NCBI GenBank assembly: GCA_965117055.1
Contig: OZ220750.1
Span: 4,358,011 to 4,422,010 of the forward strand
Source: Alphaproteobacteria bacterium
GTDB lineage: Bacteria; Pseudomonadota; Alphaproteobacteria; MPNO01
Reading direction: 5' to 3'
DNA: 64,000 nucleotides
The translations under genes were made by a program, and so were the position numbers. Positions 5,493 to 58,541 of the stretch are shown in pieces (within the stretch, counting starts at the first letter, position 1; every line of letters begins with the position of its first letter). The notes beneath the pieces were generated by a model. The model was not told the origin of the DNA. It searched no databases and saw only the letters and a list, made by a program, of their open reading frames with translations.

Positions 5493-5606
5493 TCGTCATG
5501 CCCGGACTTGTTCCCGGCATCCACGTCCCTCCACCGCCTCGTCCGCCCCCCGCTCGCACCGCGATGCCGCAAGACGTGGATGCCCGGAACAAGTCCGGGC
5601 ATGACG
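5493..5606. repeat. REPIN-like inverted doublet, family 1 (GTCATGCCCGGACTTGTTCCCGGCATCCACGTC)
   Basis: Left arm 5493-5527 and right arm 5573-5606 are near reverse complements; second copy at 44459-44573. Confidence 0.85.
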
Positions 5607-13502: not shown

Positions 13503-13534
13503 CCGTCATGGTCGGCCTTCGCCGACCATGACGG
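13503..13534. repeat. Single REP hairpin, family 2 (CCGTCATGGTCGGC-cttc-GCCGACCATGACGG)
   Basis: Perfect 14-bp palindrome downstream of tRNA-Gln; same core as the doublets at 19.6 and 24.6 kb. Confidence 0.85.
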
Positions 13535-13602
13535 TGAGGAGACAGGGGTAAAGGCGGTTCTATCTGAAACGGACACGCTATAGCGGCCCGGGCGTTCCCG
13601 GG

Positions 13603-19600: not shown

Positions 19601-19695
19601 TCGTCATGGTCGGCGCAGGCCGACCATCCACGAGTTTTTAAGGCGCTGGAAACAAAAACAAAACGTGGATGGTCGGCCTGCGCCGACCATGACGG
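19601..19695. repeat. REPIN doublet, family 2
   Basis: CGTCATGGTCGGCGCAGGCCGACCATCCACG and its exact reverse complement, separated by an A/T-rich spacer of about 27 nt. Confidence 0.9.
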
Positions 19696-21155: not shown

Positions 21156-23467
21156 CGTCGCGTCGCGCGGCGTGGATCGGCGAGCGGGTGGAGCGTCTCG
21201 AAGACCCGCCGCTGGTCGGGGGCGCGGGCCGGTTCGTCGCCGACATCTCGTTCCCCCGCCAGCTCCACATGCGGGTCGTTCGCTCCGACCGGGCTCATGC
21301 GGAGCTCCTTTCCGTCGACGCGACGGAGGCCCGGGCGGCGCCGGGCGTCGCCGCCGTCTGGACCGCGGTAGACGTCGCCGATATCGGCCCGATCGCGTTC
21401 CGGGCGACCCGGGTCAAGGGGCTGGAACCGTACCGGCAACACATCCTGGCGCGCGGAAAGGTCCGCTATGTCGGCGAGCCGGTCGCCGCGGTGTTCGCCG
21501 ACAGCCCGTACCGCGCGGAGGACGCCGCCGAGCTGGTCTCCGCGTCGTACCGCGACCTGCCGCCGATCCTGTCGGCGGAAGACGAACCGGGCCCGTTCGA
21601 TACGGAGCGCTCGACCGAGGCGCATGTGCTGGAGAAATCGCGGGGCGACATCGCCGCCGCGTTCGAGAACGCGCATGCGACGGTCGAGATCGAGGTTTCG
21701 GTCGGACGCCATTCCGCCGTGCCGATGGAAACCAGGGGCGCGGTCGCGGTCCACGACGCCGGGCGCGACATCCTCGAACTTTACGGCGCCACCAAGCGGC
21801 CGCATTTCAACCGCGACCAGATGGCCGCGGCGCTGGGCCGCCCGCCCTCCTCCGTCCAGTTCTACGAAGGCCATATCGGCGGCGGGTTCGGCGTGCGCGG
21901 CGAGCTCTACCCGGAGGAATACCTGGTCTGCGCGGCGGCGCTCCGCCTCGGCCGCCCGGTCAAGTGGATCGAGGACCGCTGGGAGCATCTGCAGGCGGCC
22001 AACCATTCGCGCGAGCAGACCCACCGCATCCGCGCGGCGGTGGATGCCGACGGCACGGTGCGCGGCATCGACGGCGCGTTCCTGCACGACCAGGGCGCCT
22101 ATATCCGCACCCACGGGGTCCGCGTGCCCGACATGACCGCCGGCATGATGCCGGGCCCCTACCGGATTCCGGCCTACCGGTCGCGCGGACATGTGCGGCT
22201 GACCAACAAGACGCCCGCCGCGACCTACCGCTCGCCCGGCCGCTACGAGGCGACATTCGCCCGCGAACGCCTGCTCGATGCCGTCGCCGCGCGCCTGAAT
22301 GCCGACCCGGTCGACATCAGGCGGCGCAACCTGATCGCGGCGGCGCAAATGCCGTTCGCGGGCGGCATCGACACCATCGACCACGAGGTGGTCTACGATT
22401 CGGGCGACTACGCGAGACTGCTCGACAAGGCGCTGGCGCGCGCCGGCTGGGACGAAATGCAGTCCGAAATGTCGACTCGCCGCGCGAACGGCGAGATGGC
22501 GGGTGCCGGGCTCGCGCTGTTCGTCGAGAAGAGCGGCCCCGGCCCCGCCGACGGGGTGCGCATCCGGGTCGACACGACGGGCGCGGTCGAGCTCCTCACC
22601 GGCGGCGCCTCGCTGGGCCAGGGCTTCGAGACCGTCATGGCGCAGATCTGCGCCGAAACGCTGGGGGTGGACTACCGCCGGGTGCGCGTGGTCCACGGCC
22701 GCACCGATCTCATCGATTACGGCTTCGGCGCGCATTCCTCGCGGGCGACCGTGATGACCGGCGAGGCGGTCCGGATCGCCAGCGGGAACCTGCGCGCCAG
22801 GGCCATCGAGGCGGCGGCGGAACTGCTCCAGGCGCCCGCCGACGCGCTCGATGTCGTCGACGGGCGGGCGGTGCGGACCGACCGCGAGGGCGGCGCCGAT
22901 ATCGGCCTCGGCGAGATCGCGCGCAGGCTGGCGCCGGGCTCGCCGTTGCTCGCCGGGCGCGATCCCGGCCTCTCGGCGGAAGGCTGGCACCGCACCGATT
23001 TGATGGCCTACCCCTACGGCGTCCACATCGCCGAGGTCCGCGTCGATGCAGGCACCGGCGCGGTCGATGTCGAGCGATTCTTCATCGCCTACGATGTCGG
23101 CCGCGCGGTGAACCCGATGCTGGTCGACGGCCAGCTGATGGGCGGCTGCGTGCAGGGACTTGGCGGGGCGCTGCTCGAGGAGTTCCGCTACGACGAGACC
23201 GGCGCGCCGCTCTCGGTCACCTTCGCCGACTACCTGATGCCGACGCTGGCCGAGACCCCGCCCATCGACCTGCTGCTCACCGAGGACGCGCCGAGCCCCT
23301 ATAACGGCCTCGGCGTCAAGGGCGCCGGCGAAGGCGGCATCAACGCGGTCGGCGGCGCCATCGCATCCGCCATCGACGCCGCGATAGGCATCCCCGGCGC
23401 CATCGACCGCCTGCCGGTGACGCCGGAGCGGCTGAGGGCGGTGCTGAAGGAGGCGGGGAGGGTGTAG
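21152..23467 (+). CDS. Molybdopterin-binding large subunit, xanthine dehydrogenase/aldehyde oxidase family
   Basis: 771 aa; start MTSRRAAWIGERVERLEDPPLV overlaps the upstream stop (ATGA); active-site region ATYRSPGR, not the CODH AYRCSFR motif. Confidence 0.9.
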   Translation: MTSRRAAWIGERVERLEDPPLVGGAGRFVADISFPRQLHMRVVRSDRAHAELLSVDATEARAAPGVAAVWTAVDVADIGPIAFRATRVKGLEPYRQHILARGKVRYVGEPVAAVFADSPYRAEDAAELVSASYRDLPPILSAEDEPGPFDTERSTEAHVLEKSRGDIAAAFENAHATVEIEVSVGRHSAVPMETRGAVAVHDAGRDILELYGATKRPHFNRDQMAAALGRPPSSVQFYEGHIGGGFGVRGELYPEEYLVCAAALRLGRPVKWIEDRWEHLQAANHSREQTHRIRAAVDADGTVRGIDGAFLHDQGAYIRTHGVRVPDMTAGMMPGPYRIPAYRSRGHVRLTNKTPAATYRSPGRYEATFARERLLDAVAARLNADPVDIRRRNLIAAAQMPFAGGIDTIDHEVVYDSGDYARLLDKALARAGWDEMQSEMSTRRANGEMAGAGLALFVEKSGPGPADGVRIRVDTTGAVELLTGGASLGQGFETVMAQICAETLGVDYRRVRVVHGRTDLIDYGFGAHSSRATVMTGEAVRIASGNLRARAIEAAAELLQAPADALDVVDGRAVRTDREGGADIGLGEIARRLAPGSPLLAGRDPGLSAEGWHRTDLMAYPYGVHIAEVRVDAGTGAVDVERFFIAYDVGRAVNPMLVDGQLMGGCVQGLGGALLEEFRYDETGAPLSVTFADYLMPTLAETPPIDLLLTEDAPSPYNGLGVKGAGEGGINAVGGAIASAIDAAIGIPGAIDRLPVTPERLRAVLKEAGRV

Positions 23468-24584: not shown

Positions 24585-24683
24585 GTCGTCATGGTCGGCG
24601 CAGGCCGACCATCCACGAGTTTTTCTTTGTCGGCGGAACAAAAAAACAAAACGTGGATGGTCGGCCTGCGCCGACCATGACGG
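24585..24683. repeat. REPIN doublet, family 2
   Basis: Same inverted 31-mer arms as 19601-19695 with an A-rich spacer. Confidence 0.9.
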
Positions 24684-39253: not shown

Positions 39254-39640
39254 ATGAGCGACGAGATCCTCACCATGCTCGGAGTGGGCGCGACGCTGCT
39301 GGCGTCGGGCGCGTCGTTCGCCCTGTTCATGTTCCGCCAATTGGTTCGCCTCGAGGGCAGGATGGGCGGGCTCGAGGGCAGGATGGGCGGGCTCGAGGGC
39401 AGGATAGGTGTGCTGGAAGGCCGGTTCGACGGGCTTGAGAGCAGGATCGGTGTGCTCGAAGGTCGGTTCGACGCGCTCGAAATCAGATTCGACAGGCTCG
39501 AGGACAGGTTCGTTCGGCTGGAAGAAAAGGTCGACGACCTCGCGAAGGGCCATCAGGCGCTCGCCCGCGAGCTTTCCGAGTTCCGCGGCGAGACCCGCGG
39601 GCGGCTGGGCGAGCTTGCGGCCGGGAGCGTCGCGGGGTGA
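39254..39640 (+). CDS. Membrane-anchored heptad-repeat (coiled-coil) protein
   Basis: N-terminal TM helix LGVGATLLASGASFALFMF, then nine LEGRxGx-type heptads. Confidence 0.55.
   Translation: MSDEILTMLGVGATLLASGASFALFMFRQLVRLEGRMGGLEGRMGGLEGRIGVLEGRFDGLESRIGVLEGRFDALEIRFDRLEDRFVRLEEKVDDLAKGHQALARELSEFRGETRGRLGELAAGSVAG
39350..39538 (+). repeat. Nine in-frame 21-bp tandem repeats
   Basis: LEGRMGG LEGRMGG LEGRIGV LEGRFDG LESRIGV LEGRFDA LEIRFDR LEDRFVR LEEKVDD read directly. Confidence 0.85.
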
Positions 39641-41953: not shown

Positions 41954-42083
41954 CCCCCTCACCCCGACCCTCTCCCCCGCGGGGAGAGGGGGCGTCGCTG
42001 CATCGCCTCGGCCTTATCTTCTCCCCTCCCGCTTGCCCCGGATCGCAGTCCGGGGCTTGCGGGAGGGGCCGGGGGAGGGTGGG
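41954..42083. repeat. Composite REP, families 4 and 5
   Basis: CCCCTCACCCCGACCCTCTCCCCCGCGGGGAGAGGGGG plus CTTCTCCCCTCCCGCTTGC...GCGGGAGGGGCCGGGGGAGGGTG; same pair recurs 7 or more times in the window. Confidence 0.85.
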
Positions 42084-42188
42084 GCATCGATTCGCGCCTT
42101 CCGCGCGTCCGGCCTCGACTCCCGAATGTCCCTATCGCATAAATCCCGAACGCCTGCTTTCCCTTTTCGGGCAAAGCGGAGCCGCCCC

Positions 42189-44100: not shown

Positions 44101-44205
44101 CCTCCCCCGGCCCCTCCCGCAAGCGGGAGGGGAGAAGGTAGAGAAGAGCCGGCGCCGCGAGTCTCCCTCTCCCCCAGCGGGGGAGAGGGCCGGGGTGAGG
44201 GGCGG
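44101..44205. repeat. Composite REP, families 5 and 4 (inverted orientation)
   Basis: CCTCCCCCGGCCCCTCCCGCAAGCGGGAGGGGAGAAG ... CTCTCCCCCAGCGGGGGAGAGGGCCGGGGTGAGGGG. Confidence 0.85.
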
Positions 44206-44330
44206 GCCGAAATAGCGCATGGAACGGATTCGGGGGTCCAGAGGCGGATTTTGGGGTGGAATCGGAAGGGAGAAAAAGGACCTTGATTTCAAGGGTTTAG
44301 AGACCAAATTATCCTTAACAAGCATTTTTT

Positions 44331-44416
44331 CTTGACTCGGGACGCGTTTTGGGGTAAATTCCCTACACTACGCGAAATGGGGGAGAGGGGCGCCGGAGGG
44401 TTCGGCGCCCCTTTCT
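44331..44416 (+). promoter_or_regulatory. Promoter-plus-terminator cassette B
   Basis: CTTGACT-N17-TAAATT (44331-44360), then hairpin GGGGCGCCG-gagggtt-CGGCGCCCC plus TTTCT (44387-44416). Confidence 0.5.
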
Positions 44417-44458
44417 CGTCCCGGGCGGTGTGGGGGTTCTCCGGCACCTTACCCCTTT

Positions 44459-44573
44459 GTCGTCATGGCCGGACTTGTTCCGGCCATCCACGTCTTGCAG
44501 CACCTCGGTGCGGGCCGGGAGCGGGCGAGGCGGCGGAGGGACGTGGATGCCCGGAACAAGTCCGGGCATGACG
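44459..44573. repeat. REPIN doublet, family 1
   Basis: GTCGTCATGGCCGGACTTGTTCCGGCCATCCACGTC ... GACGTGGATGCCCGGAACAAGTCCGGGCATGACGG; homologous to 5493-5606. Confidence 0.85.
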
Positions 44574-44630
44574 GGGAGGGGATTCGGGCCGGAACGATTC
44601 CGGCCTGCTCGGTTCACGACGACCCGATCC

Positions 44631-44733
44631 ACCCTCCCCCGGCCCCTCCCGCGAGCGGGAGGGGAGGAGTGGAGAGGAGTCGGCGCCACAACTCTCCCTC
44701 TCCCCGGCGGGGAGAGGGCCGGGGTGAGGGGCG
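44631..44733. repeat. Composite REP, families 5 and 4
   Basis: Same architecture as 44101-44205. Confidence 0.85.
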
Positions 44734-44860
44734 GGCCGGAATCGCACATGAGACGGATTCGGGGGTTCCGGGGCCGATTTCGGCCAGGAATCGGAAGGGA
44801 GAAAAAAGGCCGTTATTTCGGGGGGTTAGCGATTAATTTACTCTGAACACGTATTTTTTG

Positions 44861-44947
44861 CTTGACTCGGGACGCGTTTTGGGGTAAATTCCCTACACTA
44901 CGCGAAATGGGGGAGAGGGGCGCCGGAGGGTTCGGCGCCCTTTTTCG
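44861..44947 (+). promoter_or_regulatory. Promoter-plus-terminator cassette C (48 nt upstream of terS)
   Basis: Near-identical to cassette B over about 100 bp: CTTGACT-N17-TAAATT (44861-44890), hairpin 44917-44940 plus TTTTT. Confidence 0.5.
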
Positions 44948-44994
44948 TTGCCGGGCCGGACGCCCGGCCATCCGCAAGAGAAAGGGACAGGATC

Positions 44995-45405
44995 GTGCCA
45001 GGCCCATCGAAGGCCGAGGCGGCCATGCGCGCGGTCGCACGGAGAGACATCGCGCGGCGCATCGGACCGCCGCCCGGGCGCCCGCCGCCGATCGACGAGC
45101 AGAATGTCGCCGGGATCGCCGCGTTCGGCTGCACCCGCAAGGAGGCGGCGGCGTGGTTCGGGGTGCCGGCGGCCGAGTTCAGGGAGCGGCTCAAGGAACC
45201 CGCGCTCAAGGACGCCTGGGCGCAAGGCAGGGCGCGCGGGCGGGTGCTGATCCGCCAGACCCAGTTCCGGCTGGCCGAGAACAGCCCGCCGATGGCGCAG
45301 CATCTCGGCCGCACGATGCTGGGCCAGGACACGCCCGCCAGGGCGCCCGCGCGGAAGAAACCCGCGCGGATCGTCATCGACACGGGGATCGACCGTGGCG
45401 AGTAG
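44995..45405 (+). CDS. Terminase small subunit (HTH-type)
   Basis: 136 aa, GTG start; IAAFGCTRKEAAAWFGVPAAEF HTH; overlaps the terL start; position. Confidence 0.6.
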   Translation: MPGPSKAEAAMRAVARRDIARRIGPPPGRPPPIDEQNVAGIAAFGCTRKEAAAWFGVPAAEFRERLKEPALKDAWAQGRARGRVLIRQTQFRLAENSPPMAQHLGRTMLGQDTPARAPARKKPARIVIDTGIDRGE

Positions 45406-46714
45406 GGTCAGCACCGGCTACCGGCCGCGCCCGCTCCAGGCCGGCATCCACCGCCGCCTCAAGCGCTTCAGCGTGCTGGTCTGCCACCGCCGCTTCGGCA
45501 AGACGGTGCTCTGCGTCAACGAGCTCGTCGACCACGCGGTGCGCGCGACCCGCGGGAGCCCGCGCTACGCCTATATCGCGCCGCTCTACCGCCAGGCCAA
45601 GCAGGTCGCGTGGGACTACCTCAAGCACTACACGAAGGCGATCCCGGACCGGCGGGTGCACGAGACCGAGCTCCGCGTCGACCTCCCCAACGGGGCGCGC
45701 ATCCAGCTCTACGGCGCCGACAACCCGGATTCGCTGCGCGGCATCTATCTCGACGGGGTGGTGCTCGACGAGTACGCGCAGATGAGCCCGCATCTCTGGG
45801 GCGAGGTGATCCGCCCGGCGCTCGCCGACCGCGAGGGCTGGGCGGTCTTCATCGGCACGCCCAAGGGGCACAACGAATTCTGGCGCAAATACCGCGCGGC
45901 GTGCGCCGACCCCGACTGGTACGCGGCGCTGTTCCCGGCCTCCGAGACCCGCATCCTGCCGGAGCCTGAGCTCGAGGCCGCGCGCCGCGACATGACGCCG
46001 GAGCAGTACGCGCAGGAGTTCGAGTGCTCCTTCGAGGCGGCGATCCGGGGCGCCTATTACGGCAAGGCGATGGCGGAAGCCCAGCGTACCGGGCGCATCC
46101 GCGCGGTGCCGCACGACCCGGCGCTGCCGGTCGACACCGCCTGGGACCTCGGGGTGGGCGATCCGACGGCGATCTGGTTCGTCCAGCTCGCCGGGCCCGA
46201 GATCCACCTGCTCGACTACTACGAGGCGGCGGGCGAGGGGCTCGACCACTATGCGCGGATACTCCAGGCCAAGGCGGCCGAGCGCGGCTGGGTCTATGGC
46301 AGCCACTACGCGCCGCACGACGCGCTGGCGCGCGAGCTCGGCACCGGGCGGACGCGCGAGGAGCAGGCGCGCCGCCTCGGGGTCGCGCTCACCGTGGTGC
46401 CGCGCCACGGGATCGAGGACGGCATCAACGCGGCGCGCGCGATCCTGCCGCGCTGCTGGTTCGACGCGGCGCGCACCGAGCCCGGCATCGAATGCCTGCG
46501 CCAGTACCGCGCCAAGGTCGACGGCGCGACGGGCACGATCGGCGATGCGCCGGTGCACGACCAGTTCAGCCACGGGGCGGACGCCTTCCGCTACCTCGCG
46601 ATGGGCGTGCGCGACCGCTTCGCCCCGCCCCCGCCGCGCGGCGGGGACACGATCGACGACCATCTGCGCCGCCATTTCGCGGCCAGGCGCAGCGCCCGCG
46701 ACGGGCTGATCTGA
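45395..46714 (+). CDS. Terminase large subunit
   Basis: 439 aa; Walker A-like CHRRFGKTV, Walker B VVLDEY, nuclease half with DLGVGDPTAIW and HGADAFRY. Confidence 0.9.
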   Translation: MASRVSTGYRPRPLQAGIHRRLKRFSVLVCHRRFGKTVLCVNELVDHAVRATRGSPRYAYIAPLYRQAKQVAWDYLKHYTKAIPDRRVHETELRVDLPNGARIQLYGADNPDSLRGIYLDGVVLDEYAQMSPHLWGEVIRPALADREGWAVFIGTPKGHNEFWRKYRAACADPDWYAALFPASETRILPEPELEAARRDMTPEQYAQEFECSFEAAIRGAYYGKAMAEAQRTGRIRAVPHDPALPVDTAWDLGVGDPTAIWFVQLAGPEIHLLDYYEAAGEGLDHYARILQAKAAERGWVYGSHYAPHDALARELGTGRTREEQARRLGVALTVVPRHGIEDGINAARAILPRCWFDAARTEPGIECLRQYRAKVDGATGTIGDAPVHDQFSHGADAFRYLAMGVRDRFAPPPPRGGDTIDDHLRRHFAARRSARDGLI

Positions 46715-46726
46715 GGGCGGCGAGCG

Positions 46727-46828
46727 GCCCCCTCACCCCGGCCCTCTCCCCGCCGGGGAGAGGGAGAGTTGCGGGGCCGACTTCCCCTCTCTTCTCCCCT
46801 CCCTCTGGGAGGGGTCGGGGGAGGGTGC
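46727..46828. repeat. Composite REP, families 4 and 5
   Basis: CCCCCTCACCCCGGCCCTCTCCCCGCCGGGGAGAGGGAGAG ... CTTCTCCCCTCCCTCTGGGAGGGGTCGGGGGAGGGTG. Confidence 0.85.
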
Positions 46829-46860: not shown

Positions 46861-48591
46861 ATGAAAACCGACACCGACAGCGCCGGACCCGACGAAACCG
46901 TCCGCTACTGGCGCGGCGAGCTGGAGCGGGCGGAGCGCGCCGAGCGCGACTGGATGCGGCGCGCGGAGAAGACCGTCGAGCGCTACCGCGCCGAGAAGCG
47001 CGTCGACGGCCAGCGCCGCTTCAACATCCTCTGGGCCAATACCGAGCTCCTCAAGCCCGCGGTCTATTCGCGGACGCCCGCGCCCGACGTGCGGCGGCGC
47101 TGGCTCGACGACGACCCGGCGGGGCGCGAGGCGGCCTCGGCGCTCGAACGCGCGCTCTCCTATCTCATCGACGACGGCGGGTTCGACGCGGCGATGGAGG
47201 CGGTGCGCGACGACATGCTGCTGCCCGGCCGCGGCGTGGCCCGGATCGTCTACGAGCCGGTCATCGCGCGGCGGCCGCTCGCGCGGGCGGGCGAGGTCTT
47301 CCTGCTCGACGGGCGGCCGGCGGAGCCCGACGGGTTCGACGGCGAGACCCCGTATGTCGAGGAGATCGTCGACGAGCGCGTCTTCTGCCGGCACGTGTTC
47401 TGGAAGGACTACCGCGAGCAGCCGGCGCGGTGCTGGGACGAGGTCGGCTGGATCGCCTTCCGCCACTCGCTGACCCGGGCCGAGCTGGTCGAGCGGTTCG
47501 GCGCGGCGGGAAGGCGGATCCCGCTCGAAGGCACCGTGAGCGCCTACGATGGACGCGGCGGGGAAGGCGCCGCGCCCGAGGACGCGAGGCGCGCCGTGGT
47601 CTGGGAGATCTGGGACAAGGCGAAGCGCCGCCGCGTGGTGATCGCGGACGGCTTCGACCGCGCGGTGGAGGAGACCGGCGACCCGCTCGGCCTCGCCGGC
47701 TTCTTCCCCATCCCGGAGCCGCTCTACGCCGTGAAGACCTCGGATTCGCGCATTCCCATCCCCGAGTTCACCCTCTACCAGGACCAGGCGCTGGAGCTCG
47801 ACGAGCTCACCACCCGCAAGCGGCATTTGATCGCGGCGCTCAAGGCGCGCGGCGTCTATGCCGGGGTGCTGGGCGAGATCGAGCGGCTGCTGACCGAGGC
47901 CGGCGAGAACGAGATGATCCCGGTCAAGGACTGGGACCGGTTCCGCGACAAGGGCGGGCTCGCCGCCGCCATCGAGTGGCTGCCGATCGAGCGCATCGCC
48001 CAGGTGATCGTCTCGCTGAACGGCCACATCGCCCAGCTCAAGGGCGAGATCTTCGAGATCACCGGGCTGTCGGACATCCTGCGCGGCTCGACCCGGGCGA
48101 GCGAGACCGCCACCGCGCAGCGGCTCAAGGGCTCGTTCGGCGCGCTCCGGATGCAGCCCCGCCAGCGCCCGATGGAGCGCTTCGTGCGCGACGTGCTCCG
48201 CCTCAAGGCGGAGGTGATCGCCGAGCATTTCCGCCCCGAGACGCTGGCCCGGATGACCGGCAGGCCGGTGCCGCCGGCGGTTCTCGCGCTGCTCCGCGAC
48301 GAGCGGCTGCGCGGCTTCCGGATCGACGTCGAGACCGAATCGACGGTCCAGCCCGACGCCGAGGCCGAGCGCCGCAACGCGGTCGAGTTCCTCGCCGCCT
48401 CGACGCAGTTCTTCACCGGGATCGCGCCGCTGATCGCCGCCGCGCCGCAATCGGCGCCGATGTTCCTCGAGATGTTCCGCACCGCCGCGCGCAGCTTCAA
48501 GCCGGGACGGCGGCTGGAGGAGGTCATCGCCCGGACGAGCGAGGCGCTGATCCGCGAGGCCGAGGCGGAAAGCGGCGGGAGGACGCCATGA
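46861..48591 (+). CDS. Portal protein (podovirus head-to-tail connector type)
   Basis: 576 aa; FNILWANTELLKPAVYSRTPAPDVRRR N-terminal block; position after terL. Confidence 0.8.
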   Translation: MKTDTDSAGPDETVRYWRGELERAERAERDWMRRAEKTVERYRAEKRVDGQRRFNILWANTELLKPAVYSRTPAPDVRRRWLDDDPAGREAASALERALSYLIDDGGFDAAMEAVRDDMLLPGRGVARIVYEPVIARRPLARAGEVFLLDGRPAEPDGFDGETPYVEEIVDERVFCRHVFWKDYREQPARCWDEVGWIAFRHSLTRAELVERFGAAGRRIPLEGTVSAYDGRGGEGAAPEDARRAVVWEIWDKAKRRRVVIADGFDRAVEETGDPLGLAGFFPIPEPLYAVKTSDSRIPIPEFTLYQDQALELDELTTRKRHLIAALKARGVYAGVLGEIERLLTEAGENEMIPVKDWDRFRDKGGLAAAIEWLPIERIAQVIVSLNGHIAQLKGEIFEITGLSDILRGSTRASETATAQRLKGSFGALRMQPRQRPMERFVRDVLRLKAEVIAEHFRPETLARMTGRPVPPAVLALLRDERLRGFRIDVETESTVQPDAEAERRNAVEFLAASTQFFTGIAPLIAAAPQSAPMFLEMFRTAARSFKPGRRLEEVIARTSEALIREAEAESGGRTP

Positions 48592-48812
48592 CGCGCTACG
48601 TCTGGAGCCGGGAAGAGGGCCGCTGGGTGCCCGCGGGGACCGCGCCGCCACGCCTGCAGATCGTCAACCGCGACGCGCCGTTCGCCGAGGGCGTGAGGAG
48701 CATGGCCGACGGCAAACGCTACACCGCCCGCCGCGCCTGGGACGAGCACTTGCGCGCGCACGGCATGGTCGAGATCGGCAACGACGCGGTGGAGCGACCC
48801 CCCTCACCCTGA
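48588..48812 (+). CDS. Small hypothetical phage protein
   Basis: 74 aa; ATGA coupling to portal; last codons run into a REP element. Confidence 0.4.
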   Translation: MTRYVWSREEGRWVPAGTAPPRLQIVNRDAPFAEGVRSMADGKRYTARRAWDEHLRAHGMVEIGNDAVERPPSP

Positions 48813-48900
48813 CCCTCTCCCCCGCTGGGGGAGAGGGGATTCGCCTGCCCATCCCGCCTCTTCTTCTCCCCTCCCGCTTGCGGGAGGGGCCGGGGGAGGG
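48798..48900. repeat. Composite REP, families 4 and 5
   Basis: CCCCCCTCACCCTGACCCTCTCCCCCGCTGGGGGAGAGGGG ... CTTCTCCCCTCCCGCTTGCGGGAGGGGCCGGGGGAGGG. Confidence 0.85.
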
Positions 48901-48922
48901 CGGACCGAACGGAGACAAAGAC

Positions 48923-49336
48923 ATGCCCATCCTCGAAACCCTGTTCGGCAGCCGCGCGGCGCAGCCCATCGAGGCGGTCGGGCGCGTCATCGACGACCTG
49001 TTCACCTCGGACGAGGAACGGCTCGGCAAGGAGGCGCTGCTGACCCGCCTCGCCCAGCGGCCGGCGCTCGCCCAGATCGAGGTCAACCGGATCGAGGCGC
49101 AGCATCGCTCGGTCTTCGTCGCCGGCTGGCGCCCGTTCATCGGCTGGATCTGCGGCGCCGCGCTCGCCTGGAACTTCATCCTGCGCGACGCCCTGGTCTG
49201 GGCCTTCGCGGTATGGGCGCCGGGCACCCCGGTGCCGGCGGCCTTCCAGCTCGAACACCTGCTGACGGTGCTCCTCAGCCTCCTCGGCCTCGGCGGCCTG
49301 CGCACCTTCGAGAAGTTCGGGGGGCGGACGAAGTGA
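48923..49336 (+). CDS. 3TM holin-like protein (GTA-release holin family, DUF3154-like)
   Basis: 137 aa; QIEVNRIEAQHRSVFVAGWRPFIGWICGAALAWNF followed by further TM segments. Confidence 0.6.
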   Translation: MPILETLFGSRAAQPIEAVGRVIDDLFTSDEERLGKEALLTRLAQRPALAQIEVNRIEAQHRSVFVAGWRPFIGWICGAALAWNFILRDALVWAFAVWAPGTPVPAAFQLEHLLTVLLSLLGLGGLRTFEKFGGRTK

Positions 49337-49404: not shown

Positions 49405-49728
49405 ATGACGGGAGATGCGCGGCGACCGAACGCTTTGCGCTTCGTGATCTTCGAGGAAGAGGGTGCATGGGTCGCGATGTGCCTGGAACGCTACATCGGT
49501 ACGCAGGGCCGCACGAAGGAAGAGGCCATCGACGGCCTGAAGATCGTCTACCGTGCCGAGCTCGACGAGTCCGTGGCCCGCACCGGCGAGCCGTTCGGCG
49601 GCATTCGGCGAGCACCGAAGAAATTCTGGGAGATGCACGAGTCGGACGATCCGTCGATCCTTCGCGGCCGCATATGCGACGACGGGGTCGGCGCGGGAAT
49701 GGGAGAGCGGCTTGAAATCGCGGCGTAG
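49405..49728 (+). CDS. HicB-fold-like small protein
   Basis: 107 aa; ALRFVIFEEEGAWVAMCLERYIGTQGRTKEEAIDGLKIVYRAEL fits the HicB N-domain pattern; weak. Confidence 0.4.
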   Translation: MTGDARRPNALRFVIFEEEGAWVAMCLERYIGTQGRTKEEAIDGLKIVYRAELDESVARTGEPFGGIRRAPKKFWEMHESDDPSILRGRICDDGVGAGMGERLEIAA

Positions 49729-49730
49729 GC

Positions 49731-50015
49731 ATGATCGCGGAACGCACTCCCCCGGGCCCTGCCTTTGACGACTACTGCAAATGGCTTACGGAAGAGGGCG
49801 GCAGCGTCCGGCACCGACAGAACCGATGGGGCGGCTACGCTGTGCTGCACTCGCCGGATGGCACCCTTTGCGTCGTGATCCCGAAGACGGCCATGAACGA
49901 GATGCTGGTCTCGGAGTTGATCGAGTATCTCGATACCCGGCTCGGACTGGTCTCGCCGTGGCGGAGGCATCCACCGATGCCCCAGGGGGATGCCGATGAC
50001 GACCCCGAAGCCTGA
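49731..50015 (+). CDS. Hypothetical small protein (possible HicA-like partner)
   Basis: 94-aa ORF starting 3 nt after the previous stop; pattern W...GG....H.......GGYAVLHSPDGTLCVVIPK only loosely HicA-like. Confidence 0.35.
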   Translation: MIAERTPPGPAFDDYCKWLTEEGGSVRHRQNRWGGYAVLHSPDGTLCVVIPKTAMNEMLVSELIEYLDTRLGLVSPWRRHPPMPQGDADDDPEA

Positions 50016-50084: not shown

Positions 50085-50363
50085 ATGAAATACGTATTGC
50101 TCGGCAAGCAGAGCGGCGAGTGGCTCGGCAGGCACGACCGGCGCAACCGGCTCGCCCGCGCCAAGGCCAAGGAGCTCGGGATCAAGATCCAGTCGGTGCT
50201 CTACACCCAGGGCGAATACGACTTCGTCGACACGGTCGAGGCGCCCTCGCCCGAGGCGATGCTCAAGTTCTCGGTGTGGTACGCCAAGCAGGGCTTCGGC
50301 TCCTTCCAGAGCATGCCCGCCTTCGACGGCAAGACCATGGCCGAGGCGTCGAAGGAGGAGTAG
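50085..50363 (+). CDS. GYD-domain protein
   Basis: 92 aa; MKYVLLGK...YTQGEYDFVDTVEAPSPEAMLKFSVWYAKQG matches the GYD family. Confidence 0.7.
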   Translation: MKYVLLGKQSGEWLGRHDRRNRLARAKAKELGIKIQSVLYTQGEYDFVDTVEAPSPEAMLKFSVWYAKQGFGSFQSMPAFDGKTMAEASKEE

Positions 50364-50376
50364 CGGGGCGCCCCAA

Positions 50377-50512
50377 CTGTCACCCCGGACTTGATCCGGG
50401 GTCCAGGCCCCGGACTGGGATCCGGGGCAGGCCTGCCCCGGACCGCGATCCGGGGAAGCCCGGCGAGGCGGAGCGTGTGGCTCTGGACCCCGGCTCAAGG
50501 CCGGGGTGACAA
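50377..50512. repeat. REP cluster, family 3 (four CCCCGGA-N5-TCCGGGG hairpins)
   Basis: Outer arms TGTCACCCCGGACTTGATCCGGGGTCCAG (50378-50406) and CTGGACCCCGGCTCAAGGCCGGGGTGACA (50483-50511). Confidence 0.9.
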
Positions 50513-50532
50513 TCGAGGCGGTTCGGAAGGCC

Positions 50533-50823
50533 ATGCGGACCTACTGGGTCTACATCCTCGCGAGCGGGCGCAACGGCACGCTCTATGTGGGCGTGACCAA
50601 CGACATCGTCCGGCGGGTCGCGCAGCATCGGGACGGCACGGGTGCGTCCTTCACCCGCAAATACAAGGTGACACGGCTCGTGCACGTGCAGCCGTTCGAG
50701 GATATCGAGTACGCCATCGCGCAGGAGAAGCGGCTGAAGAATTGGCGGCGGGAATGGAAGCTCACGTTGATCGAACGGGAGAATCCGGAGTGGCGGGACT
50801 TGTACGAAGACATCACCGCCTGA
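50533..50823 (+). CDS. Small GIY-YIG nuclease-family protein (copy 1)
   Basis: YWVYILASGRNGTLYVGVTNDIVRRVAQHR ... EKRLKNWRREWK; the ORF can also start at GTG 50506, inside the REP arm. Confidence 0.8.
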   Translation: MRTYWVYILASGRNGTLYVGVTNDIVRRVAQHRDGTGASFTRKYKVTRLVHVQPFEDIEYAIAQEKRLKNWRREWKLTLIERENPEWRDLYEDITA

Positions 50824-50847
50824 TGCCGCCCCCCTGACCGCACAGAC

Positions 50848-50934
50848 TGTCACCCCGGACTTGATCCGGGGTCCAGGGAAACAGGCAAGAACGATGCCCG
50901 CCGCTCTGGACCCCGGATCAAGTCCGGGGTGACA
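50848..50934. repeat. REPIN doublet, family 3
   Basis: 29-mer 50848-50876 and its exact reverse complement 50906-50934. Confidence 0.9.
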
Positions 50935-50979
50935 TCGGGGGTGCAGGAGGTTGCGGCACCCCTTTGGAGGCTGAACGAG

Positions 50980-51435
50980 ATGACCGAGGTCGCGAAACGG
51001 CGCATGCGGTACGGGTACACCGAGTGCGGCCTGGATAACGTATTTATCGAGGGGATCGAGATGCGCGGCGATGAGGTGCTGTACATCCCGGCGGTCAACG
51101 AACTGCACAAGACGATCGCCCGGGGCATCGTCGAGAGCGGAACGGGCATCAGCGGGCAGGAGCTCAGGTTCCTGCGGACGATGATGGCGTTCACCCAAGC
51201 GGAGCTGGCAAGGCACGTCCACCACGACGCCCAGTCGATCGCGCGATGGGAAAAAAACCAGACGCCGATCCAGCCGGCATCCGAGATCGTCATCCGCCTG
51301 CTGGCCGTCGAGAAACTGAACCTCGGCGAGCGCGGTCCGATCGAGAAAATCGCCGCCAGATGCGTGCCGGCCGAAACCCGCGCGGACATCGTGATCGACG
51401 GAAGCGGCCCCCCGAGATACAGGCTCGCGGCCTGA
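50980..51435 (+). CDS. MqsA/YgiT-like XRE HTH regulator (orphan antitoxin-like)
   Basis: YGYTECGLDNVFIEG...ISGQELRFLRTMMAFTQAELARHVHHDAQSIARWEKN; no zinc-finger cysteines; no adjacent toxin. Confidence 0.6.
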   Translation: MTEVAKRRMRYGYTECGLDNVFIEGIEMRGDEVLYIPAVNELHKTIARGIVESGTGISGQELRFLRTMMAFTQAELARHVHHDAQSIARWEKNQTPIQPASEIVIRLLAVEKLNLGERGPIEKIAARCVPAETRADIVIDGSGPPRYRLAA

Positions 51436-51534: not shown

Positions 51535-52524
51535 ATGACGGACGACACCAACGGGGCGGCTTCGGCCGCCGCGCGGAACAGCCTGCGCGAAGACCTGGAA
51601 GAGGCGTGGGACCGGCTTTCCTCGGAAGCCGGAGAACCGGAACCGGAGGCGAAGGCCGCTTCCGTCGAGGACGAGGACGAAACGGCCGTCCCGGAGGACG
51701 ACGCCGCGCCGGAGGACGAGCCCGAAACCGCCGTCGTCCCCCTCGCCCACTGGCCGGCGGAGTGGCGCGAGCGGTTCCAGGCGCTGCCGGAAGACGCCAA
51801 GCCCTACGCGCTCGACCTCCACCGGCAATTCGAGAAGGCGCATTCCGACCGCAGCCAGGCGCTCGCCGAGCGCGAGAAGGAGCTCGACGGGCTCCGGGCG
51901 GTCGACGCGGCGCTCGCCCCGTGGCGCGAGACCATGCGGGCCGAGGGGCTGACCGACGGCGAGGCGGTGAAGCGGCTGATGGACGCGCGGGCGGCGCTCG
52001 AACGCGACCCCGGGGCCGCGCTGTCGGCGATCGCCGAGTCCTACGGCATCGCGCCGCCGGCCGGCGCCGCCGCCGCCCCGCCCGAGCGGCGGGACGCGCT
52101 GACGGAGACGCTCGAGCGCTACGCCGCCGAGCAGCACGAGCTCCGCCTGATCGCCGCGATGGAGGCCGAGCTCGATTCCCGCGCCCGCGCGGTCGACGCG
52201 GCGGGCGAGAAGCGATTTCCCCATTTCGAGGCGGTCCGGCCGAAGCTCGCCGCGCTGATGCGCGCCGGCGCGGCGGACGGCTTCGAAGACGCCTACGAAC
52301 AGGCCGTCTGGGCCGATCCCGCTCTCCGGCAGAAGGCGCTGGAAGCGCGCGATGCCGAGCTGGCGGCACGGCGCGAAAGCGCCCGCAAGGCCGAGGTGGA
52401 GAAGGCGAGGAACGCCGGACGGGCCGCGCTCAGCGGCTCCGAACCGGCGAAATCCGCGCTGCCGCCCGCCCGGTCGCATCGCGAGGAGCTTGAGCGCGTG
52501 TGGGACCGGATGGTCGGCGCGTAA
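51535..52524 (+). CDS. Scaffolding protein (by position and composition)
   Basis: 329 aa, acidic, Ala/Glu-rich, helical; immediately upstream of the capsid gene. Confidence 0.55.
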   Translation: MTDDTNGAASAAARNSLREDLEEAWDRLSSEAGEPEPEAKAASVEDEDETAVPEDDAAPEDEPETAVVPLAHWPAEWRERFQALPEDAKPYALDLHRQFEKAHSDRSQALAEREKELDGLRAVDAALAPWRETMRAEGLTDGEAVKRLMDARAALERDPGAALSAIAESYGIAPPAGAAAAPPERRDALTETLERYAAEQHELRLIAAMEAELDSRARAVDAAGEKRFPHFEAVRPKLAALMRAGAADGFEDAYEQAVWADPALRQKALEARDAELAARRESARKAEVEKARNAGRAALSGSEPAKSALPPARSHREELERVWDRMVGA

Positions 52525-52549: not shown

Positions 52550-53515
52550 ATGGCGAACGCCAATCTGGGCGATCTGGTCACGACCACGCTGCGCAACCGG
52601 CGCGGCCAGCTCGCCGACAACATCCTCAACCACAACGCGGTGCTCCGCTTCCTCAACCGGACGGGCAACGTGGACCCGGCGGACGGCGGGCGGACCCTGG
52701 TGGAAGAGCTCGAATACGCCGAGAACCAGACCTTCAAGTACTATTCCGGCTACGAGGCGCTCGACGTCTCGCCGTCCGACGTCTTCGACTCCGCCGAGTT
52801 CGAGTGGAAGCAGGCCGCCGTGGTGGTCTCGGTCTCGGGCGCCGAGGAGCGCAAGAACGCCGGCAAGGAGCAGTCGCTCCGCCTCGTCGACCGGCGCATC
52901 AAGAACGCCGAGAAGACGATGATGAACAACCTGTCGGAGGGCGTCTATTCCGACGGCACCGGCTCGTCGGGCAAGCAGATCGGCGGGCTCAAGGCGCTGG
53001 TCGCGGACGACCCCACGACCGGAACCGTCGGCGGCATCGACCGCGCCTCGTTCGAGTTCTGGCGCAACCAGGTCTACGACTTCTCGGAAGCCTCCGTCGA
53101 GGCGGGTTCGGAGACGATCCAGAAGGCGATGAACGCGCTCTGGCTCAAATGCCTCAGGGGCGCCGACGCGCCGACCCTGATCGTCGCCGACACCGCGTAT
53201 TTCAACCACTACTGGCAGTCGCTGCAGGCGATCCAGCGGATCTCGTCGGAGGAGGACGCGGGCGCCGGCTTCCGCTCGATCCGGTTCTACGGGCCGGGCG
53301 GCTCGGCCCCGGTGATGTACGACGACAAGTGCCCGGAAGAGCACATGTACATGCTGAACACCGACTACCTGTTCTGGCGCCCGCACAAGGACGCCAACAT
53401 GGAGCCGCTGGAGAAGCGGCAATCGGTCAACCAGGACGCGACCGTGATCCCGGTCGTCTTCATGGGCAACCTCACCATGTCCAACGCCGCCCGCCAGGGC
53501 GTGATGCACGCGTAG
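52550..53515 (+). CDS. Major capsid protein
   Basis: 321 aa from MANANLGDLVTTTLRNRRGQLADNI; AAGGAAA SD; position after scaffold; podovirus coat-like blocks. Confidence 0.8.
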   Translation: MANANLGDLVTTTLRNRRGQLADNILNHNAVLRFLNRTGNVDPADGGRTLVEELEYAENQTFKYYSGYEALDVSPSDVFDSAEFEWKQAAVVVSVSGAEERKNAGKEQSLRLVDRRIKNAEKTMMNNLSEGVYSDGTGSSGKQIGGLKALVADDPTTGTVGGIDRASFEFWRNQVYDFSEASVEAGSETIQKAMNALWLKCLRGADAPTLIVADTAYFNHYWQSLQAIQRISSEEDAGAGFRSIRFYGPGGSAPVMYDDKCPEEHMYMLNTDYLFWRPHKDANMEPLEKRQSVNQDATVIPVVFMGNLTMSNAARQGVMHA

Positions 53516-53519
53516 CGGC

Positions 53520-54100
53520 ACGGGGCGGCGGTCCTCCGACCGCCGCCCGCCTCCCCCCGTCATGCTCGGCGAAGGCCGAGCATCCACGAGTTTTTTCCTT
53601 GGCGGAGGGAGAACAAAAAAACAAATCGTGGATGCTCGGCCTTCGCCGAGCATGACGGGGGGGGGGAGAGGGAGACCCACCTTTCCCCCCCCCCCTCCCG
53701 CTTGCGGGAGGGACCGGGGGAGGGCGGCGATCGTGTCGACAGGGCGGCGGTCGGAGAACCACCGCCCGCCCTCTCCTCCGTCATGCTCGGCGGAGGCCGA
53801 CCATCCACGAGTTTTTTCTTCGGCGGAGGGAGAACAAAAAAACAAATCGTGGATGCTCGGCCTTCGCCGAGCATGACGATAGGGGGGAGAGGGAGACCCA
53901 CCTTCCCCCCTCCCGCTTGCGGGAGGGGCCGGGGGAGGGCGGCGATCCTGTCGACAGGGCGGCGGTCGGAGAACCACCGCCCGCCCTCTCCTCCGTCATG
54001 CTCGGCGGAGGCCGACCATCCACGAGTTTTTTCTTCGGCTGCGGAACAACAAAAAAGCAAATCGTGGATGCTCGGCCTTCGCCGAGCATGACGATGGGGG
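53520..54100. repeat. Tandem array (about 2.5 units of 215-220 bp) of composite REPs (family 2 variant REPIN plus family 5 plus GC hairpin)
   Basis: Unit starts CCGTCATGCTCGG at 53558, 53778 and 53993; arms GTCATGCTCGGCGAAGGCCGAGCATCCACGAG / reverse complement. Confidence 0.9.
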
Positions 54101-54103
54101 TGA

Positions 54104-54394
54104 TCAGGGCAGGAAGGTCTCGACAAGGTCGTTCCAGTCCGGGTTGGACTCGTGGATCAACCGGACCTTCCAGGCCCGCCGCCACCGCTTGATCGCCTTC
54201 TCCCGCCGGATCGCTTCGCGGATGTCGTCGTGAGGTTCGGCGTAAACGAGGCGTGTCAGCCCGTAACGCTTGGTGAAGCCGTCGATCAGGCCTTCGCGGT
54301 GCTCGTGAACGCGGCGCGCGAGGTCGGCGGTCACGCCGACATAGAGGGTGCCGTCGGGCCGGTTCGTCACGATGTAGACCCAGCCGCCCGCCAT
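54104..54394 (-). CDS. Small GIY-YIG nuclease-family protein (copy 2)
   Basis: GGWVYIVTNRPDGTLYVGVTADLARRVHEHR ... EKAIKRWRRAWK; the ORF can extend to an ATG inside the upstream REP arm. Confidence 0.8.
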   Translation of the reverse strand: MAGGWVYIVTNRPDGTLYVGVTADLARRVHEHREGLIDGFTKRYGLTRLVYAEPHDDIREAIRREKAIKRWRRAWKVRLIHESNPDWNDLVETFLP

Positions 54395-54440
54395 CCGTCG
54401 ATGCTGGCGGCGAGAGCGACAGGACGCAACCTCCTCCCCC

Positions 54441-54478
54441 GTCATGCTCGGCGAAGGCCGAGCATCCACGAGTTTTTT
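54441..54478. repeat. REP half-unit, family 2 variant
   Basis: CGTCATGCTCGGCGAAGGCCGAGCATCCACGAG, 46 nt upstream of GIY-YIG copy 2. Confidence 0.85.
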
Positions 54479-54540
54479 TCTTTGGCGGGGGGCCGGATTG
54501 TCGGCCCCTCTTTCCACAACACCAACCGAAAGGACGATCC

Positions 54541-58395: not shown

Positions 58396-58504
58396 CCCCC
58401 CTCACCCCGGCCCTCTCCCCGCTGGGGAGAGGGAGAGTCGCGGCGGCGCCGACCCCTCCTAATCTTCTCCCCTCCCGCTTGCGGGAGGGGCCGGGGGAGG
58501 GTGG
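58396..58504. repeat. Composite REP, families 4 and 5
   Basis: CCCCCTCACCCCGGCCCTCTCCCCGCTGGGGAGAGGGAGAG ... CTTCTCCCCTCCCGCTTGCGGGAGGGGCCGGGGGAGGGTG. Confidence 0.85.
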
Positions 58505-58541
58505 ACCCCCAGAACCACCGACCCAACCCCAGGAGAACGCC

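Follow-up and report, generated by a model that had tools for sequence, protein, structure and literature searches.

This study concerns a small nuclease gene, named ssn1 (50533-50823, + strand), and the hairpin repeats placed around it in a 64-kb stretch of DNA from an alphaproteobacterium (assembly GCA_965117055.1, contig OZ220750.1). This whole stretch is referred to as the window, and related loci fetched for comparison are labelled L001-L287. The locus is very probably an Ssn/SRM unit, that is, the gene of a small GIY-YIG nuclease together with copies of the hairpin repeat (SRM) recognised by that nuclease. The Ssn family of single-domain GIY-YIG nucleases (cd10448) was defined by Chenal et al. 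(2025, Nat Commun 16:2388; PMC11893778), its prototype being the 94-amino acid (aa) SsnA of N. meningitidis (NMV_0044/NMB0047). Family membership, fit of the repeats to the SRM motif, specific association of gene and repeats, purifying selection and polymorphism of the occupied slot all point, in the sequences compared, to this assignment. The preliminary description of the locus had presented a nuclease with cognate REP-type palindromes as an undescribed combination; the pairing was upheld by the association statistics reported below, whereas the novelty was not, such systems having been described by Chenal et al. (PMC11893778).

The ssn1 gene and its product

The product of ssn1 is a 96-aa protein in which the Pfam GIY-YIG domain (E = 2.6e-16) spans residues 4-76 and no second domain is present, as in single-domain Ssn proteins of about 90-105 aa. 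For comparison with Neisseria we used the 94-aa SsnA orthologue of N. gonorrhoeae taken from PLSDB record NZ_CP119142.1 (L287), which has Y6, Y17 and E64 and exact copies of the NTS repeat around its gene. Ssn1 was 55% identical to this protein (BLASTP E = 3e-33; tblastn 55.1%, E = 1e-22), the homology criterion of Chenal et al. for Ssn being tblastn E < 1e-10 (PMC11893778). Residues Y7, Y18 and E65 of Ssn1, invariant in an alignment of 24 sequences, align to Y6, Y17 and E64 of SsnA, and each of the substitutions Y6A, Y17A and E64A abolishes SsnA cleavage (PMC11893778). As to the source of the comparison protein, two 2.17-Mb N. gonorrhoeae records in PLSDB, NZ_CP119142.1 among them, are evidently chromosomal sequences that carry a plasmid label. 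In NZ_CP119142.1 the orthologous ssnA gene is unannotated in the PLSDB table and shows ATT/ATA instead of ATG at the 94-aa start position.

Homologues of Ssn1 numbered 4966 at E ≤ 1e-10. The closest, 93% identical, belongs to a Defluviicoccus metagenome-assembled genome and occupies the same phage slot. Close relatives were chromosomal as often as phage-borne, and homologues from isolated phages reached at most 37% identity. At the sequence level ssn1 is under purifying selection, with ratios of nonsynonymous to synonymous divergence (dN/dS) of 0.14-0.40 against its relatives. An NCBIfam search returned no family for Ssn1, and the only solved structures detectable by sequence were PDB 1ZG2 and 1YWL (E = 3e-8 and 5e-7), of the distant UPF0213 type. 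Exact-sequence look-ups with the 96-aa form, with a 105-aa form and with the protein of the neighbouring helix-turn-helix (HTH) gene found no identical record. The 105-aa form corresponds to an alternative in-frame GTG at 50506, inside a repeat arm, which had been proposed earlier as a possible start; the GTG is indeed there, homologues however begin at the ATG. This ATG lies 21 nt past the nearest SRM, and the next SRM starts 24 nt past the stop codon.

Family-A hairpin repeats flanking ssn1

The 29-mer TGTCACCCCGGACTTGATCCGGGGTCCAG, which defines the repeats here called family A, occurs as exact copies at 50378-50406 (+), 50848-50876 (+) and 50906-50934 (-), and a fourth copy with two mismatches is located at 50483-50511 (-). 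These were the only four matches with up to three mismatches in the 64 kb, as compared with none in 100 shuffles, and all of them are within 160 nt of ssn1. The positions of the copies and of the upstream four-hairpin cluster agreed with those of the preliminary description. In the copy at 50483-50511 the stem CCCCGGA/TCCGGGG has become CCCCGGC/GCCGGGG; the two changes sit opposite each other and are compensatory, and the stem is therefore retained. When folded as single-stranded DNA (ssDNA), single copies gave about -10.5 to -10.9 kcal/mol (z from -3.6 to -4.1 with respect to shuffles), whereas the two doublets that they form gave -42.8 and -58.2 kcal/mol (z of -10.5 and -7.9).

Each flank of the gene carries one REPIN-like inverted doublet (50378/50483 upstream and 50848/50906 downstream), and gene-less doublets of the same organisation were found in L004 (7882/7934) and L005 (19986/20045). 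The outer left SRM (50368-50406, +) contains an exact 29-mer with the core GTCA-CCCCGGA-CTTGA-TCCGGGG-TCCA at 50379-50405, preceded by about 10 nt that extend the inverted repeat. From 50368 onwards it pairs over 39 nt with the outer right SRM (50906-50944, -), which has the corresponding extension of about 10 nt and marks the right boundary of the block; the left boundary is the outer left SRM, where homology with L004 and L005 begins. The inner left SRM (50483-50511, -; -10.5 kcal/mol) is the copy with two mismatches, and the inner right SRM (50848-50876, +) is an exact 29-mer separated by a 29-nt spacer from the outer right one in an exact doublet. Inside the upstream spacer (50408-50455) lie two more hairpins, CCCCGGACTGGGATCCGGGG and CCCCGGACCGCGATCCGGGG, at 50408-50427 and 50436-50455, which belong to another palindrome family. 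Their palindrome type also appears at 42036 and 43391, and at the equivalent place it is represented by one copy in L004 and by none in L005.

The published degenerate SRM motif (HGTCWY N0-2 YYVSBRH N0-5 WNVSBRG N0-2 RNCYNB) was matched by three of the four copies, those at 50378-50406, 50848-50876 and 50906-50934; the whole window contained six matches vs. 0.74 expected from shuffles. The copy at 50483-50511 was recovered with a detector requiring GTCA, a perfect stem, a loop and TCCA, a format common to the SRM-like repeat families of the window, with 16 perfect instances.

A scan for promoters and terminators detected no sigma-70-like promoter or intrinsic terminator pattern, and no T-tracts follow the hairpins. 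Stabilisation of upstream mRNA is a role of REPs in E. coli, and the short distances between the SRMs and the start and stop codons of ssn1 would also suit hairpins acting mainly in cis on its expression, either in autoregulation by Ssn or as mRNA-stabilising or terminating structures. Regulation of expression was likewise the first possibility considered by Chenal et al. (PMC11893778). We regard a mainly cis-acting role as improbable, though it may be an additional function, given the outcome of the scan, the dispersal of the same motifs far from any ssn gene, and the behaviour of N. meningitidis SsnA, which binds neither RNA nor double-stranded DNA (dsDNA) (PMC11893778).

Association of ssn genes with SRMs across homologues

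The association of gene and repeat was measured in 150 loci fetched blind, 83 metagenomic homologues and 67 from viral contigs, using the detector mentioned above and taking as near the gene whatever lay within 150 nt of the ssn homologue. Among metagenomic loci, a hairpin was found at this distance in 53 of 83 homologues and on both sides in 32, with 1.94 hairpins per kb near the gene vs. 0.097 elsewhere. For viral contigs the values were 25 of 67 on at least one side, 14 of 67 on both, and 1.32 vs. 0.050 per kb. The density near ssn homologues was therefore 20-26 times that found elsewhere. The metagenomic figures are close to those published for homologue regions, 71% of which carry an SRM and 42% of which are flanked on both sides; in addition, an ssn gene is present in 81% of the genomes that contain over 200 SRMs (PMC11893778). 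The nearest copies were usually oriented + upstream (48 of 59) and - downstream, just past the stop codon (56 of 65). Stems varied widely among loci and the GTCA and TCCA flanks were constant; the conserved GTC before the palindrome and the C that follows it matter most for cleavage and binding (PMC11893778). Exact matches to the Neisseria NTS consensus flanked 13 fetched homologues 55-64% identical to Ssn1.

Repeats also differed according to the protein. Protein identity and SRM similarity were correlated over 77 gene-repeat pairs (r = -0.22, 0 of 500 permutations being as extreme). Ssn1 and its paralogue in the window, Ssn2, carry different SRM families (A and B, respectively), as do their respective nearest relatives. 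In a scan for repeat cores that covered one genome per species, the family-A core was present in at least 120 genome stretches, mostly from Sphingomonadaceae; among the core-bearing stretches listed, four contain an ssn gene, in each case within about 50 nt of the repeat. Gene-less family-A doublets were observed in L001, L004 and L005.

The gene and its flanking palindromes are a specific pair and not a chance neighbourhood. Several repeat families crowd the window, and in a REP-rich genome flanking by the same REP might be a coincidence; this explanation was rejected on the basis of the density ratios and of the recurrence of the pairing at three unrelated sites, to which the proximity of all four copies to ssn1 can be added, and its probability is practically negligible.

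The doublet organisation and genome-wide dispersal of the repeats resemble REPINs driven by a RAYT, and the repeats could accordingly be ordinary REPINs mobilised by a RAYT encoded elsewhere, the GIY-YIG gene being a passenger or a favoured landing site. A tblastn search with E. coli RayT as query, covering the window and 1.94 Mb of fetched loci including the 120 core-bearing stretches, gave no homologue (best E = 0.42), and the enclosed gene encodes a GIY-YIG protein instead of the Y1 (HUH) transposase of the RAYT/REPIN system. RAYT-associated REPs carry a conserved 5' head of the GTAG type; GTCA and TCCA were the flanks in every repeat family examined here. The motif moreover tracks ssn homologues across phyla, and such motifs are direct in vitro substrates of Ssn proteins, which bind and cut them (PMC11893778). 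A RAYT-driven origin is for these reasons very unlikely. The RAYT-like architecture lacking a Y1 transposase, as proposed in the preliminary description, was thus supported for the window, and no RAYT with the same REPs, the finding that would have contradicted that proposal, came to light in the loci searched.

Some observations weigh against the Ssn/SRM assignment or restrict it. The association statistics depend on a detector of our own design that is stricter than the published motif, and the copy at 50483-50511 fails the published expression at one degenerate position. The immediate neighbours of ssn1 show the minority orientation (- upstream and + downstream), which was present in only 1 of 46 pairs. 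The permutation test on protein identity and SRM similarity ignores shared ancestry. N. meningitidis SsnA loses its activity when the stem sequence is changed and the hairpin kept (PMC11893778), and a specificity of Ssn1 for the CCCCGGA stem is suggested by co-occurrence only. Finally, the biological role of Ssn outside Neisseria was left open in the source paper (PMC11893778).

Predicted activity of Ssn1

SsnA of N. meningitidis binds the NTS hairpin CGTCATTCCCGCGMAVGCGGGAATCYRG, which contains dRS3, as ssDNA only and on one strand, cuts a few nt upstream of it and shows no activity on dsDNA; SsnA and three homologues, four Ssn proteins altogether, cleave their own repeats as ssDNA (PMC11893778). 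By homology with these four proteins we infer ssDNA cleavage, cut positions and any role for Ssn1. Ssn1 would bind GTCA-CCCCGGA-loop-TCCGGGG-TCCA only as ssDNA and only on the strand reading GTCA...TCCA, which it would cut a few nt 5' of the motif, and it would be inactive on duplex DNA and on RNA. Since the outer SRMs are oriented + upstream and - downstream, cuts are predicted just outside the 577-bp block (about 50368-50944) and on opposite strands; those directed by the inner copies would fall in the intervals that separate the doublets from the gene. The unit is best regarded as a semi-selfish module of nuclease plus repeat, with a history of gain, loss and relocation across related phages and chromosomes. 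Candidate roles are restriction of incoming ssDNA, as in Neisseria, spread of the repeat, and a phage-related function.

The same unit in related phages and chromosomes

Units with the same SRM family occupied three unrelated sites: between the genes of a GYD protein and the HTH protein in the window and in L001-L003, between terminase and portal genes in L004, and between chromosomal genes of the Sua5/YciO and RidA types in L005. The proteins of these units were 80-93% identical (80-82% for those of L004 and L005), and homology between blocks ended about 10 nt beyond the outer SRMs. The 27-nt SRM cores differed at one loop position only, synonymous divergence (dS) amounted to 0.2-0.47 and the doublet spacers could not be aligned. 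Near-constant cores despite such divergence indicate that enzyme and sites are maintained, or that the sites are homogenised. The slot between GYD and HTH genes is shared with L001, in which the gene has diverged to a dS of about 0.2, and the insertion at this slot in the window is consequently not recent. The position inside a prophage head-gene block, as noted in the preliminary description, was corroborated, but the recent mobility read from it was not.

L284, a related phage, has adjacent GYD and HTH genes and no ssn between them. Other repeats and a degenerate SRM remnant lie in the slot; because of these, loss by recombination is an equally possible origin of this arrangement. L284 was rejected as a clean empty site, the repeats and the remnant leaving the insertion boundaries undefined, and the terminase-portal junctions of the window, L001 and L004 were rejected as an empty site on account of being mutually unalignable. 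Among the fetched relatives, neither a target-site duplication nor a clean empty site could be identified. Of the empty sites that the preliminary description had suggested looking for, L284 thus provides a slot without ssn but not a clean one.

Several rearrangements involve the repeats. In L001 the upstream doublet has been lost by deletion and only TCACCCCGGA remains. In sphingomonads ssn lies within a single inverted pair, with tandem units next to it, one of them with an internally deleted gene (L039, L103), and, in L052, a gene-less doublet with spacer ends similar to the untranslated regions (UTRs) of ssn. At L003 7330-7340, homology to L001 stops within the downstream SRM, in its loop (CCCCGGATCAAG|TTTTTT), with AT-rich foreign DNA beyond, and at L039 1700-2730 an insertion sequence (IS) interrupts the stem of an SRM that lies between two tandem ssn units. 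Slot polymorphism, the second paralogue and these rearrangements are together as would be expected of a block that is mobile or copied through recombination between repeats, which supports this view without proving it.

The SRM-ssn-SRM block might itself be an autonomous mobile element, an idea compatible with the Ssn/SRM assignment, to which it would add a mechanism of spread; we consider it possible but, on balance, doubtful. According to it, Ssn would nick SRMs where they are single-stranded, replication forks being one such place, after which the gene or gene-less doublets would be copied by host repair or by recombination between SRM copies. The copies would land in new SRM-bearing sites, as a nuclease-only counterpart of homing or of the RAYT/REPIN system. 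Such a block could account for the three unrelated sites with homology ending just outside the outer SRMs, for the absence of ssn from the slot in L284, and for the tandem units, the internally deleted gene and the UTR-like doublet of sphingomonads, as well as for breakpoints inside SRM hairpins (the L003 junction and the IS in L039). It could also explain why ssn2 and three doublets follow the capsid gene in the window, as opposed to a gene-less doublet in L001 and L281. The hypothesis was already raised by Chenal et al., who likened NTS-ssnA-NTS to an insertion sequence and to IS200/IS605 transposases with REP/BIME (PMC11893778); a search of the literature collection covered here found no follow-up work on the mobility of Ssn units. 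Against it stand the lack of a clean empty site and of a target-site duplication, with L284 equally explained by loss, and the age of the window slot, at which no recent event is documented. Hydrolysis by GIY-YIG enzymes proceeds without a covalent intermediate, and strand transfer would consequently depend on host functions; the predicted end cuts, unlike those of IS200/IS605, fall on opposite strands. That autonomous nuclease-only SRM-ssn-SRM elements are carried between hosts by temperate phages is slightly more doubtful still. For the Ssn/SRM unit as such, mobility is supported only indirectly, through its different slots and its presence or absence among related phages.

A second paralogue and other SRM families in the window

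A search by tblastn revealed a second gene, ssn2 (54104-54394, - strand), 3.3 kb from ssn1 and downstream of the capsid gene. Its product, Ssn2, shared 53% identity with both Ssn1 and the Neisseria SsnA orthologue (BLASTP E = 7e-35 against the latter). The SRMs around it (53559-54468) belong to family B (GTCATGCTCGGCGAAGGCCGAGCATCCA), with the structure GTCA-TGCTCGGC-GAAG-GCCGAGCA-TCCA and the stem TGCTCGGC/TGGTCGGC. One copy (54441-54468) lies upstream of ssn2, and three tandem doublets with a period of 215-221 nt lie downstream (53559-54092), each joined to a G-rich palindrome (region 53469-54491). The HTH, scaffold and capsid genes of the prophage lie between the ssn1 and ssn2 units. At the place downstream of the capsid gene, where the window has ssn2 and its three doublets, a gene-less doublet of a third family is all that L001 and L281 carry.

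This third family, C (GTCATGCCCGGACTTGTTCCGGGCATCCA, stem TGCCCGGA), matches the published SRM motif and forms gene-less inverted doublets at 5495-5605 and 44462-44572 of the window, at L001 8151-8259 and at L281 9006-9115. No ssn gene was found near the family-C doublets within the window, and a third paralogue cognate to family C may exist elsewhere in the genome. In L284 (3655-5141), a transposase gene of the IS110 family and a family-C SRM are about 430 nt apart. A variant of family B, GTCATGGTCGGCGCAGGCCGACCATCCA, forms gene-less doublets at 19603-19693 and 24588-24681, about 5 kb apart, and appears also at 13508-13539; these doublets are inside an apparent duplicated region of about 4.7-5 kb, with other direct repeats at 22128/26860 and 23093/27846.

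Prophage setting of the unit

The ssn1 gene is embedded in the head module of a prophage. The genes for terminase (about 45251-46712) and portal (46861-48591) were assigned from the homologous genes of L001 and L004; they are followed by GTA_holin_3TM (48878-49336), the GYD protein gene (50085-50363), the HTH protein gene (50980-51435), a scaffold-sized open reading frame (ORF) with no Pfam hit that was assigned by position only (51535-52524), and an SU10-type capsid gene (52550-53515). No relatives turned up among viral contigs when the GYD and HTH neighbours served as queries, and portal-related viral contigs (32-42% identity) contained neither ssn nor SRM.

A location between phage head genes is typical of free-standing GIY-YIG homing endonucleases of the Seg/I-Tev-like kind, which cut the duplex DNA of competitors; if ssn1 were a classical member of this group, the palindromes would have no connection with it, being terminators or host repeats. 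Ssn1 also gave a weak match to T5orf172, and Ssn2 a sub-threshold match to a group I intron endonuclease model. Ssn1, however, consists of only 96 aa with no DNA-binding or other extra domain, the hairpins lack T-tracts, and the sole gene-less allele found, that of L284, is not a clean target. The even distribution of relatives between chromosomes and phages and the low identity of isolated-phage homologues argue in the same direction, as does the inactivity of the best characterised relative on dsDNA (PMC11893778). We therefore hold homing of the classical type to be highly improbable, and an Ssn/SRM unit residing in a prophage to be the better description.

Other features of the prophage were recorded. 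Two small ORFs of 107 and 94 aa (49405-50015), with a gap of 3 nt between stop and start and no Pfam hit, lie between the holin and GYD genes; the pair is absent from the otherwise collinear phage L001 and for this reason resembles another inserted cassette, possibly of a toxin-antitoxin-like nature. In L281 (5638-6468) and L282 (5728-6468) a DUF4258 gene directly precedes the HTH gene, with which it may form a toxin-antitoxin pair, and neither GYD nor ssn is present. The region upstream of the HTH gene, occupied by DUF4258 in some phages and by GYD and ssn in others, thus appears to be a hotspot of cassette exchange in this lineage. A composite repeat that is not an SRM (CCCCCTCACCCCGGCCCTCTCCCCGC-GGGGAGAGGG followed by TTCTCCCCTCCCGCTTGCGGGAGGGGCCGGGGGAGGG) fills gaps of the prophage at 41954-42085, 46728-46789, 48799-48906 and 58397-58507, and also occurs at L284 5817-5925, the slot that holds the ssn unit in the window. 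Just upstream of the terminase region there is a tandem duplication of about 530 bp (44163-44956) that includes G-rich palindromes and whose copies are 79-93% identical, and an array of five to six 21-nt tandem repeats (CTCGAGGGCAGGATGGGCGGG) at 39350-39475, degenerating along its length, probably encodes a heptapeptide repeat.

Relation to known systems

A nuclease travelling with the hairpins that it recognises was published in 2025, and hence the locus opens no new category; it extends the Ssn/SRM pairing to a prophage and to an alphaproteobacterium that seems to be Defluviicoccus-like, going solely by the source of the closest homologue. Two co-resident paralogues with distinct repeat families fit a picture of many co-evolving enzyme-site pairs, which are potential ssDNA tools. 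The slot polymorphism bears on the question left by the Ssn paper of whether the NTS-ssn-NTS block is mobile and a source of repeat expansion. If the units were autonomous elements, this would be the first documented Ssn unit in alternative slots of a phage lineage and in a chromosome.

Among other minimal proteins, those of the UPF0213/YhbQ type (PDB 1ZG2, 1YWL) share a GIY-YIG domain of about 100 aa with Ssn1; they are distant, the C-terminal motif K-W-R-x-W-K / N-P-x-W-x-D-L, typical of Ssn, is missing from them, and no repeat association has been reported. A GIY-YIG phylogenomics paper of 2006 classed standalone prokaryotic proteins as Slx1-like and did not mention repeats. Phage free-standing homing endonucleases such as Seg and I-TevI have in common with Ssn1 the GIY-YIG domain and a gene placed between conserved phage genes, but they possess DNA-binding domains and cut duplexes, whereas Ssn1 is a bare catalytic domain whose characterised relatives cut ssDNA only.

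The resemblance to RAYT with REP, REPIN or BIME lies in a single gene flanked by its presumed target palindromes, in repeats dispersed as inverted doublets and, for Ssn1 by homology, in recognition of a hairpin and a short conserved flank in ssDNA. RAYTs are IS200/IS605-like Y1/HUH enzymes acting through a covalent tyrosine intermediate, whereas Ssn is a hydrolytic GIY-YIG enzyme of unrelated fold, and mobilisation of SRMs by Ssn remains hypothetical. The dRS3 elements and NIMEs of Neisseria belong to the same repeat superfamily, dRS3 (ATTCCC-N8-GGGAAT) being the palindromic core of NTS, and they too cluster around genes and mark hotspots of recombination or insertion; their stem is different, and dRS3 has been described without orientation-giving flanks or a link to a nuclease.

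The closest system is that of Ssn and SRM in Neisseria. Both have a single domain of about 95 aa (53-55% identity between the proteins of the window and the Neisseria orthologue) in which the two catalytic Tyr residues and the Glu are kept, genome-dispersed repeats of the form GTC-palindrome-C oriented on both flanks of the gene, and a different repeat variant for each different Ssn. The stem is CCCCGGA here and ATTCCCGCG in Neisseria, and each flank is an inverted doublet here, which places the nearest repeats in the reverse of the usual orientation. The role in transformation shown in Neisseria may not apply to this host, in which, unlike in Neisseria, the unit is situated in a prophage head module and two paralogues with distinct SRM families lie 3.3 kb apart.

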